A DNA stretch of 64,000 bases from a virus. Made by a program: the position numbers. The stretch is taken from the IMG/VR virus record IMGVR_UViG_3300047678_000160, positions 1-64,000 of that record. The stretch is one strand, 5' to 3'. This document shows positions 48,001 to 51,000 of the stretch, piece after piece (position 1 is the first letter of the stretch; each line of letters starts with the position of its first letter).

Positions 48001-51000
48001 TTATGATGTTATTTCCGTAACAAATGGTGAAGACCGCAAGATTGCCAAGAATTTAAAATTGGAAGATGTTGGAGAGTTCTTGAAGAAGCACGCTGCTGAT
48101 TCGGAGAAGACATATCAACAGAAGGCTTATGACAAATCCAAAAAAGGATTTGGAATTGAAAAGAAAGAAGATAAGAAGAAAGACGAATCTGATAAGATGG
48201 AAGATGTCAAAGAAAAGACCCAAACCGATATTTCTGACAAGACAGATGTTAAGGCTGAAGAGAAGGGTGAAAAAGATTTGGCTCCGGTTGATGATGATTT
48301 GTCAGCACAAATGGGTGGAGAACTTGTTGACAAGATTGAAAGAATCATGGACAAGGTGTTGAAGAGTAAGACCAAGGCAGAAACAAAAACCGCTTATTTG
48401 AAGACAGACAAAGACATGGAAAGCACTGATAAGTTGGCTGTGAAGTTAGACGGAACAAACGCTATTAAAGGTGCTAAGTCTAAAGAGAAGATTACTCCAA
48501 AAGTTAAGGCAGTAGATTCAAAGAAGTGAAAAAATCGGAGCTAAAGTCTCTTATTTTGGAAGTGGTTTCAGAAATATACGGAAATCAGAAGCTCGATGAT
48601 ATTGATATTATCAAGGGTGAGACAATCATTTCGGTCAATCCCAAAGAATATTCTAACGAAGTTTACTTGAATTGTGCAAGTGGAAATGTCTACGAGGTAT
48701 TCGCCTACCCAGACGATAACGCAACGGCGGAAATTTCAGTAGTGAATTTGGATAAAATAATTGGAAAGCCCATCGTTTTTGCTCAACACTCCGACAAAGA
48801 TTCTTATGGCGTTACTTTGATAATGAAAGCGGGTGACGGCAGCATTGGTGAAATTTTGATTAGTTGTGACCATAACGGATATTACGGATTTGAGTATGGT
48901 GTTACCAAAAGAGGTTCGTAGACCGCAAGAAAATTCTTGACATTTGATAAAAAAGACTACATCGTTGGTCTATTAAATCAATTTCGCGTTTGTAGCTCAA
49001 TGGCTGAGCAGTCGTCTCTAAAACGATGGATGTGGGTTCGAGTCCCATCTGACGCACCACTTTCTAATGAAGCATAAAGCAACAATCTCAATCGCCACTC
49101 CGGAGACGGACGCCTTACTCTCCAAAGAGTATGGGGAAAAAGGACATGAGGCGAAGCTTGCTGGTAAGACAAGGGAAGATTGCCCTTATTCCGGCGGCAA
49201 GGTAAGAGATTGGTGGTTAGAAGGTTTTGATGGTATTTCTATGAACACAAATACAAATAGTTAGGTTCCAGATACATAGGCTAAGGTAGATACTACCCTT
49301 AGACGTGTTATAGTTGAAAATATTTTCAACTTTTTTGCGTTTTCTATTTTCTATTCTATACTCATTGGTATGGGAAGAAAATCACTAAATAAGACACACG
49401 AACAAATACTTGAAGAAAATCGTATTCGTTCTGCAAAATATTATTTGCTTCATAAAGAAGAAATAAACAAAAAGACAATGGATAGGTATAACAAGAGAAA
49501 GAAGTTGTCTCTTGAAAATCGCTGATATGAATGTGTATTACGCATATCTCTTGAAGCGGCCCGACGGAACTCCGTTTTATGTTGGAAAAGGAAAAGGTAG
49601 AAGATGTTATGCACACCCAAAACCTTGGCATCTAAAAAAGGATGAAAACAGATATAAAGTTCATATCATAGAAAAAATCCGTCGTGAGGGCCAAGAACCT
49701 ATCATTGAAATACTACAAAATAATCTATCTGAGGAAGACGCTTTTGTGCTTGAAATCCAACAAATAAAACTTTATGGAAGAACTATAAATGGCGGATTGT
49801 TATGCAATATGTCCGTCGGCGGTGAGGGACAATCCGGATTTCACCACAGCGAAGAAACTAAAAGAAAACTTGCTATTATAAGCAAAGAAAATAATGGATT
49901 TGTCGGAAAGAAACACAACGAAGAAACTCTAAAATAATAGGTGATGTAAATAGAGGAAAAGTTCTTGACGATGGGTGGAGAAAGAAACTTAGTGATGCCA
50001 CTAAAGGCAGACCTAAGAGTGAGGAGCATAAGCTAAAAATAAAAAGCGCCCATCTAAATAGAGAAATACCAACGGAACAAAGACAGAGAATGGTAGATAT
50101 GAATAAATCAAGAATCGGAAAATCTCTGAGCAAGGAGCACGGAGAGAAACTCAGCAAGGCTACAAAGGGCGTTTCAAGAGGACCGATGAAGCCAGAAACT
50201 AAAGAAAAATACGACTTGCCAGAATAAAAACATACAAAATATGAACACAGAAAAAATGTAGGACACTACACTAAGAATATACACGCTTTTACGCACTGAC
50301 CTAAATATGGGATGTGGTAAAAGTTGTAGTCAGGCGGGCCACGCTGCCCTCGGAACATTTTTACAGGCCCCAAAGGATTTACAAGACGCCTACCACAAAG
50401 ACGGAATTGGAACGAAGGTATGCTTAGCATGCCCCAATCTATCACAGCTTCAAACGGCATACGAAACTGCCGTTTCATTGGGTTTACCAGCCGATTACAT
50501 CGTTGATTCGGGCTGCCCCGATTTCTTTGGTGGTCAACCCACTCCCACAGCCGTTGGCATTGGTCCTATTACGCGTGCTCAGGCCAAGTTCTTAAAGAAG
50601 TTTCAACTCCTCAAGTAATATGCAAACTATAGTAGAACTAACCCAAATCGTGAACGAAGGTGAGAGTGCCCAAGATTCACTCAATTCAATCGCGGAGTCA
50701 ATCTACGATTTTTATATGGCTGAGATTGAGCGTCAAAAGAAGGAATTGGAAATACAATATCCTTGGTTTGACGAACAGATTTCAGAACTGGAGCGTTGTA
50801 ATTCTGGCTTTCATAAGTATCGATTCTCCGGAAACGACCTTATGCTCATTGGTCGGGATTACTTCCGAGGTGAAACCAACACAGAATATGATTCGCTTCC
50901 TATTGGCGTCTTTATTGACGACCAAGATAAGCGTCATCAATTAATCAAGGATTTTGTCTCTTCTAAGTTCAATGCAATTCACGCACGAATGAAGAAGAAA

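Follow-up and report, generated by a model that had tools for sequence, protein, structure and literature searches.

The viral record IMGVR_UViG_3300047678_000160 is a contig of 95,728 bp, and we analysed its first 64 kb (the window). It is a fragment of a myovirus-like phage genome, with tail sheath, rIIA, ribonucleotide reductase and NAMPT genes, and is probably incomplete, since its end is a tRNA array. An amber suppressor tRNA and a gene of the peptidyl-tRNA hydrolase 2 family, pth2, which has a TAG codon in frame close to its start, are found in the window. An earlier reading of this DNA, made without database searches (the sequence-only reading), had proposed that amber codons are used here as a selective regulatory gate, and had combined the tRNA, pth2, an Rmf-like open reading frame (ORF) and a release factor gene into one circuit. 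All window features given below are on the plus strand.

The suppressor tRNA and the interrupted pth2 gene

The tRNA (positions 48986-49059) is the only one called by ARAGORN in the window. It has the anticodon CUA, an encoded CCA end, A73 and a short variable loop, and it scores 61.8 bits with the Rfam tRNA model against a gathering score of 29, so that its assignment from the sequence alone was borne out by both tools. A box containing TTGACA (48937-48942), which had also been pointed out before, is present ahead of the tRNA at about 48936-48952. It is promoter-like, and the nearest relatives (the related loci L001, L007, L010, L014, L073 and L082) have kept the same box at 35-50 nt ahead of their suppressor tRNA. 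It was not among the promoters listed by a sigma-70 scan of the region, and a promoter function is presumed.

The pth2 gene (50241-50618) opens with ATG 50241 and has its in-frame TAG at codon 7 (50259-50261), with a second ATG (50256) directly 5' of the TAG. When the TAG is read as sense, the product matches Pfam PTH2 at 61.4 bits (threshold 23) from residue 13 onwards; the match spans the frame after the TAG, which confirms that this is a pth2 gene with an in-frame stop. The first ATG available after the TAG under the standard bacterial code (code 11), at 50307, corresponds to Met23 and lies ten residues past the start of the Pfam match. Scores with the NCBIfam Pth2 equivalog models are below cut-off (60.5 against 126 and 52.6 against 82), and the protein is therefore classed as a predicted member of the Pth2 family (PF01981, the archaeal/eukaryotic-type peptidyl-tRNA hydrolases) and not as an equivalog. 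Across 28 Pth2 homologs Q31, H34, K59 and D89 are invariant and K27 is nearly so; the conserved positions include the GK lysine and the Q..H and D.G motifs, among which we take catalytic residues to lie, following published work on Pth2.

The AlphaFold2 (AF2) model of the read-through product has a predicted local distance difference test score (pLDDT) of 92.9, and its strand 1 spans residues 12-18. Foldseek aligns it with the solved Pth2 of the archaeon M. jannaschii (2zv3) at a template modelling (TM) score of 0.79-0.92 and a root mean square deviation of 1.3-1.6 Å. In a sequence alignment, residue 12 of the phage protein is matched to residue 2 of the archaeal one. The Met from which gene callers start the phage protein is part of a motif that is internal in the aligned cellular Pth2 sequences. 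Given this and the position of strand 1, a start at Met23 would lose a core strand, and the model suggests that the Pth2 α/β fold including strand 1 holds for the read-through form only.

Conservation of the leader stop and its match to the tRNA anticodon

Ninety-four related loci were fetched from metagenomic and viral contigs by alignment-based scans, and the frame upstream of the conserved Met was translated; 84 of these loci are non-redundant, at 34-63% identity, and were used for the stop counts. Scans of viral contigs with the single proteins, Pth2 or the product of the Rmf-like ORF, gave no matches. In a large protein database, close relatives of Pth2 are nearly all called as proteins of 103 aa from the same internal Met, and a few longer ones have Gln where the window has TAG.

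In 78 of the 84 loci TAG is the first stop in the frame upstream of the conserved Met; one locus has TAA instead, and the remaining five have no stop within 30 codons. TAG makes up only about 17% of the stop trinucleotides in this genome, and its predominance in the leader is therefore not due to chance. It typically lies 16-25 codons upstream of the Met. Leaders, that is the codons from the start to the stop, are 2-10 codons long (2 codons in 17 loci), and 10 of the 38 loci that were analysed together with a nearby tRNA have two leader TAGs. Between the last stop and strand 1 there is no start codon (ATG, GTG or TTG) in 75 of the 82 loci with a stop. The stop also has a preferred context, being followed by a purine in 80/82 loci and preceded by ACG or ACA in 55/82, and the body of pth2 is free of TAG in 75/82. 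From these alignments we read the early TAG of pth2 as a conserved feature and not as damage.

Accordingly, there is next to no likelihood that the TAG at 50259 arose by nonsense mutation or misassembly and that the gene is a decaying piece of locus debris. The neighbourhood does show decay: the adjacent endonuclease gene has a frameshift, part of another leader copy is left over, and a further endonuclease of the genome also has a TAG. Against this, the same early stop occurs in about 80 relatives, the tRNA is intact, and the pth2 body is uninterrupted, keeps the family-invariant residues and gives a confident fold.

The sequence-only reading had suggested a search of related contigs for co-occurrence of the tRNA and the pth2 amber codon, and this pairing is kept in most relatives. 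Among the loci with enough upstream sequence, ARAGORN found a same-strand CUA tRNA in most, and the distance from its end to the conserved Met is usually 56-240 nt; in the nearest clade the leader ATG follows the CCA end of the tRNA by 7-8 nt. Three loci are particularly informative. In L087 both leader positions are TAA, and the tRNA next to the leader has the anticodon UUA. In the cultured Agrobacterium phage Atu_ph07, codon 7 of the leader is TGA and ARAGORN identifies a suppressor tRNA with the anticodon UCA, which is also stated in the genome description (PMC6102473). The cultured Sinorhizobium phage Phosso has TAG at leader codon 4 and an annotated CUA tRNA. The type of stop thus follows the anticodon of the suppressor (TAG/CUA, TAA/UUA, TGA/UCA), and because it does so in these three loci the link between tRNA and pth2 appears from the sequences to be functional and not merely positional.

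An alternative that has to be weighed is that the leader is an ordinary regulatory upstream ORF ending at the TAG, that Pth2 is made by re-initiation, from a non-canonical start or from Met23, and that the neighbouring tRNA is a coincidence of tRNA-rich regions. The shortness of the leaders, with only two codons in 17 loci, would suit such an arrangement, as would the canonical start after the stop in 7/82 loci and the fact that gene callers report the 103-aa form everywhere. Any stop codon would serve this purpose, yet TAG is used in 78 of the 79 loci with a stop in this interval, and the type of stop tracks the anticodon in three separate combinations. Moreover, 75/82 loci offer no canonical start before strand 1, and a start at Met23 deletes the core strand. 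We consider this explanation unlikely.

Clustering of the ORFs around pth2 across all loci revealed a further gene, gene X, which the sequence-only reading had not pointed out; it lies directly 3' of pth2 in 65/84 loci and often overlaps the pth2 stop. It encodes 110-160 aa with the motif F..KEEYL.WR..WK (L003-L093) and is present in both Atu_ph07 and Phosso; no copy was seen within the 3.3 kb that surround pth2 in phage Xoo-sp13, a pth2 gene without a leader stop. In the window gene X is at 51553-51987, its ORF opening at 51499 with 51553 as the likely start. The AF2 model is all-helical (pLDDT 89), and the protein had no PHROG, no usable Atlas and no Foldseek match, while VIA-align returned generic helical hairpins only (Z 6.2 or less). 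Here pth2 and gene X are separated by two closely packed ORFs, 50620-51069 (149 aa) and 51066-51548 (160 aa), whose C-terminal ends are alike. A family search with these two ORFs gave no match, and the second has relatives just downstream of pth2 in four other loci. From the gene order across the loci, we take the conserved unit to be the suppressor tRNA, the stop-gated pth2 and gene X.

Just downstream of gene X, or near the module, ARAGORN also reports tRNA-like genes with abnormal anticodon loops, including four-base 'anticodons' such as gcaa (L016:6542-6621, L027:10771-10850, L083:8260-8339, L021:8496-8578, L028:3984-4059 and L034:5671-5749). None was found in this window.

It was also necessary to ask how stop codons are used in the rest of these genomes. 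The coding density of the window is 0.898 in code 11 and 0.907 if TAG is counted as a sense codon; for the whole contig the values are 0.869 and 0.888, and they are similar when TGA or TAA is read as sense instead. Density likewise barely changes with TAG as sense in 25 long related loci, where 101 of 643 long ORFs (about 16%) end in TAG; on this contig 4 of 109 do. Among the marks of a code-15 genome (TAG = Gln) looked for over the contig and the 25 relatives, the suppressor tRNA, tRNA(CUA), is present, and neither a large number of genes with in-frame TAG nor a gain in density was found. The comparison of codes 11 and 15 that had been proposed therefore gives near-equal values, and ordinary code 15 is not the explanation: judged by density and ORF ends, stop codons are not recoded genome-wide, and the genomes otherwise read as code 11. 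The related statement that the other genes of the window are intact in code 11 largely stands, but fails for a frameshifted GIY-YIG endonuclease gene between the Rmf-like ORF and pth2.

A restricted form of recoding, with code 15 in part of the genome and the other recoded genes outside the 95.7-kb contig, has some points in its favour. The contig appears partial and ends in a tRNA array, TAG ends so few of its long ORFs, a second gene with an in-frame TAG exists, and TAG-recoding phages carry suppressor tRNAs and release factors (bioRxiv 10.1101/2021.08.26.457843). Nevertheless we regard it as highly improbable, given the lack of a density gain here or in the 25 long related loci, the 16% of long ORFs that end in TAG in the relatives, and the confinement of the stop to the pth2 leader, with a TAG-free body in 75/82 loci.

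The second gene with an in-frame TAG is outside the window (genome 71022-71558; L099:523-1059) and encodes another GIY-YIG/NUMOD3-like endonuclease. Its TAG is at codon 40, within the Pfam GIY-YIG catalytic domain, and a further one is at codon 160; the gene could be in decay, or it could be a second one of this genome that depends on amber reading. The tRNA array that closes the contig (L100, genome 90500-95728) has about 29 ARAGORN calls, 24 of them supported by Rfam, including two tRNA-Lys calls of unusual length (84 nt). A 'CUA tRNA' called by ARAGORN at genome 91799-91874 has no Rfam support and was rejected.

Probable locus history and the separate release factor

The arrangement of the window differs from that of its relatives between the tRNA and pth2. 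An ORF of 65 codons (49067-49264) begins 7 nt after the tRNA and ends in TAG. It scores above cut-off with Pfam RMF (30.5 bits, cut-off 27.9) and NCBIfam Rmf_CrpP_fam (31.6 bits, cut-off 28) and below it with the RMF equivalog PRK14563 (33.8, cut-off 40), and is filed as a member of the Rmf/CrpP family with a putative role in ribosome hibernation. A tblastn search of 50,697 phage records gave no match. Its 71 homologs are mostly 55-80 aa long, with five above 100 aa, and their matches end at about residue 57-59 of the window ORF, which would therefore be without a stop of its own and borrow one from the sequence that follows.

The origin of that stop can be seen by DNA comparison. Positions 49241-49303 are a remnant of an old pth2 leader, comprising the leader ATG, TAG 49262 and TAG 49277: the last seven codons of the Rmf-like ORF, a TAG, four codons, the second TAG and eight codons. 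This stub matches two-TAG alleles that are intact in L007, L010, L014 and L082, and the similarity stops at the conserved DTTLR. The ATG of the Rmf-like ORF is exactly at the position of the leader ATG in relatives. Thus an Rmf-like ORF ending in TAG does exist as described, but it does not belong to the module, its TAG being merely the first TAG of the old leader.

At the break point there is an 18-nt perfect palindrome with a T-run (49313-49336), read from the sequence as terminator-like; a terminator scan did not list it, because its stem is AT-rich. The insertion that follows holds a small ORF of 51 aa (49370-49525), with no Pfam match and a single relative (47% identical, in L021), and a broken GIY-YIG/NUMOD3 homing endonuclease gene (49527-50227; Pfam LEM-3_GIY-YIG and NUMOD3), in which one base has been lost from an A-run at 49931-49934. 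An intact endonuclease, 71% identical, is located between tRNA and pth2 in L081, and L004 holds a further homolog. The second leader, from 50241 on, is like the one-TAG alleles, for example those of L001 and L081, as is the body of pth2, and the two copies of the repeated DTTLR codons differ at synonymous positions only. The simplest reading of these similarities is that homing brought in the endonuclease together with a foreign one-TAG pth2 allele and left a stub of the resident gene. In this history the Rmf/CrpP-like ORF would have taken the leader start, and the homing-endonuclease cassette would have cut the old two-TAG leader and later decayed.

Endonuclease genes at the tRNA-pth2 junction were seen in several other loci, of the GIY-YIG type in L081:9300-10060, L004:1-560 and L008:1672-2430 and of the HNH type in L083:6443-6930; L008, like the window, retains an old-leader stub 5' of the endonuclease. 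The junction between suppressor tRNA and pth2 would thus be a hot spot for homing endonucleases, at which other genes, here the Rmf/CrpP-like ORF, can take over the start and stop signals of the leader.

The release factor gene (21123-21867) had been described as needing bypass of a UGA, and this was borne out. Its 5' ORF starts at ATG 21123 and has 27 codons; a GGGGG run (21193-21197) is followed by a 3-nt spacer and then by CTT-TGA (21201-21206), where a +1 frameshift would join the 27 residues to a further 220. The +1 frame has no ATG, GTG or TTG before 21262 and carries the PCRF (66.3 bits) and RF-1 (69.9 bits) Pfam domains to 21867, with GGQ in the translation. The 247-aa protein is without domain 1, its match beginning at about position 103 of RF1, and it is far below the equivalog cut-offs (prfA 151.7 against 400, prfB 116.8 against 370). 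By sequence it is closer to RF1 than to RF2. Its tripeptide, PKN, aligns with PVT of RF1 and fits neither the PxT of RF1 nor the SPF of RF2.

This mini release factor (mini-RF) belongs to a large family of phage proteins of 215-245 aa, in which the tripeptide is mostly PPT, more distant members included. In 48 non-redundant viral loci, the shift site near the domain start is CTT-TGA in 22, mostly at -19 or -22 nt, CTT-TAG in six and CTT-TAA in one; the remaining loci mostly have no shift site, and several apparently start at an ATG of their own. Since the site is conserved in the family, we consider the frameshift to be programmed and of the prfB type, in a separate gene with its own control. 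The stop of the shift site does not track the codon-reading tripeptide (L102-L176).

These results bear directly on the proposal of a wider circuit, in which tRNA, Rmf-like protein, Pth2 and frameshifted release factor would together take over termination or represent codon reassignment at its beginnings. In its favour, one genome encodes the four translation factors, and the huge uncultured phage LR756511.1 has both a mini-RF and a Pth2. However, neither the release factor nor the Rmf-like gene was found within 10 kb of the module in any of the 94 related loci, the mini-RF family is widespread alone and keeps its own shift site, and the TAG of the Rmf-like ORF is inherited from the leader remnant. 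A single circuit of this kind is decidedly unlikely, and as proposed it is not supported; an early intermediate of codon reassignment, or a gate that senses limiting RF1, would be speculative. Amber as a selective gate, by contrast, is retained for pth2, with about 80 relatives, a co-varying stop and code 11 elsewhere, and is dropped for the Rmf-like gene. The locus is probably best explained as a conserved phage operon of suppressor tRNA, stop-gated pth2 and gene X that has been rearranged here, with the release factor standing apart.

Proposed read-through of the leader stop and its possible role

The co-variation of stop and anticodon, together with the fold of the read-through form, gives good support to the view that full-length Pth2 would need the cognate phage tRNA. 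Ribosomes would start on the short leader and meet a stop that can be decoded only by the phage suppressor. In its absence termination would occur after a few residues, and the next ATG would yield a Pth2 without its first core β-strand. The yield of full-length Pth2 would then scale with the level of the phage tRNA and the extent to which it is charged, while the release factor of the host competes for the stop. Gene X may need the same read-through where it overlaps the pth2 stop. For leaders with two stops the output would scale with the square of the tRNA, which would introduce a delay and limit the dose.

The residue inserted is probably Gln and/or Lys. Many amber suppressors with an altered anticodon are charged with Gln or Lys in Escherichia coli, and the ungated homologs P0030, P0012, P0031 and P0052 carry Gln at the TAG position. 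By nearest neighbour, the suppressor tRNAs are closest to Arg, Thr and Lys tRNAs and rarely to Gln; the residue is left as Gln and/or Lys because they are unlike tRNA-Gln in sequence. Aeromonas T5-like phages have a CUA tRNA that is 80-83% identical to that of the window, within a tRNA array (L101:1496-1570, vB_AdhS_TS3). No Pth2 match was obtained in the Aeromonas records, and in TS3, the record examined, the gene next to the tRNA has no TAG; tRNAs of this lineage thus also occur apart from pth2.

Several observations weigh against a gate of this kind. The more distant phage Pth2 proteins of Xoo-sp13, XacN1, RsoM2USA, phiM12 and Myrna are encoded by ordinary ungated ORFs, so the enzyme itself does not require the gate, which would belong to one clade. 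A possible start codon does follow the stop in the 7/82 loci mentioned above. In the window a distance of 1.2 kb, which includes the terminator-like palindrome, separates the tRNA from pth2, so that their co-transcription is uncertain. By sequence the suppressors look more like Arg, Lys or Thr tRNAs than like tRNA-Gln, so that the residue given above is tentative. Finally, as about 16% of the relatives' long ORFs end in TAG, an efficient suppressor should be costly, and weak or context-dependent read-through is therefore favoured.

A known precedent for such control is prfB, the gene for RF2. Like pth2, it encodes a translation factor and has a stop early in its frame, and the amount of product would in both cases depend on the handling of that stop. 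The window mini-RF has the identical device (GGGGG, 3 nt, CTT-TGA). prfB gets past its stop by shifting to the +1 frame and responds to its own product, whereas pth2 would be read in frame and would need a dedicated tRNA encoded next to it. Code-15 recoded phages (crAss-like, Lak and others) are alike in that a phage suppressor tRNA reads in-frame stops in a host with the standard code, and control of timing has been proposed for stop-codon-recoded phages (bioRxiv 10.1101/2021.08.26.457843, PMC9523058). They differ in having many in-frame stops in many, mostly late, genes, whereas here one or two are found at a fixed leader site in one operon, and the remaining genome of the gated-pth2 phages is in code 11, with TAG still ending genes.

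The Pth2 proteins of jumbo phages and mycobacteriophages belong to the same enzyme family, with the same proposed role in recycling peptidyl-tRNA during ribosome rescue (PMC7824862); that account mentions neither a stop-codon gate nor a link to a suppressor tRNA, and our literature search for a stop-gated pth2 found no description. Phage transfer-messenger RNA (tmRNA) genes are located 2-8 kb upstream of the module in L034:3410-3813, L040:503-928, L046:3109-3523, L075:157-561 and L086:1870-2262. Such nearby tmRNAs agree with a context of ribosome rescue, and so does the function suggested for phage Pth2. Read-through by a suppressor should itself produce extra stalled or dropped-off peptidyl-tRNA, and our guess, held with low confidence, is that the gate serves as a coupler of dose and timing that ties tRNA-recycling activity to the suppressor tRNA.

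Suppressor tRNAs of phages have so far been explained by wholesale recoding of stops or left without a known target. 'Orphan' CUA or UCA tRNAs are described in the code-11 phages XacN1 (PMC5852040) and Atu_ph07 (PMC6102473), which likewise combine a suppressor tRNA with the standard code. The authors of the XacN1 study found no target for its CUA tRNAs, and those of the Atu_ph07 study pointed only to the many UGA stops of the genome and to no specific gene. The TGA in the pth2 leader of Atu_ph07 is a candidate target of its UCA tRNA; as the Pth2 of XacN1 is ungated, the module does not explain the CUA tRNAs of that phage. Current annotations give a truncated Pth2 in gated phages, the cultured Atu_ph07 and Phosso included, and these two, with TGA/UCA and TAG/CUA respectively, offer cultured systems for testing.

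We propose, at about even confidence, that the leader stop is a translational lock: the conserved, perhaps main, target of the tRNA would be the stop of the neighbouring pth2-X unit, and lock codon and key anticodon would evolve together. If so, the level of Pth2 would reflect how abundant, intact or well charged a single phage tRNA is in comparison with the release factors of the host, and the lock could serve for timing, or for sensing the state of translation or a tRNA-targeting defence. It would also account for 'orphan' suppressor tRNAs in some standard-code phages and would be a natural counterpart to the amber-gated gene switches of synthetic biology. The arrangement is gene-specific, and many phages from soil, sediment and water, diverged and for the most part large, have retained it; in them the suppressor tRNA may be the key to a single operon.

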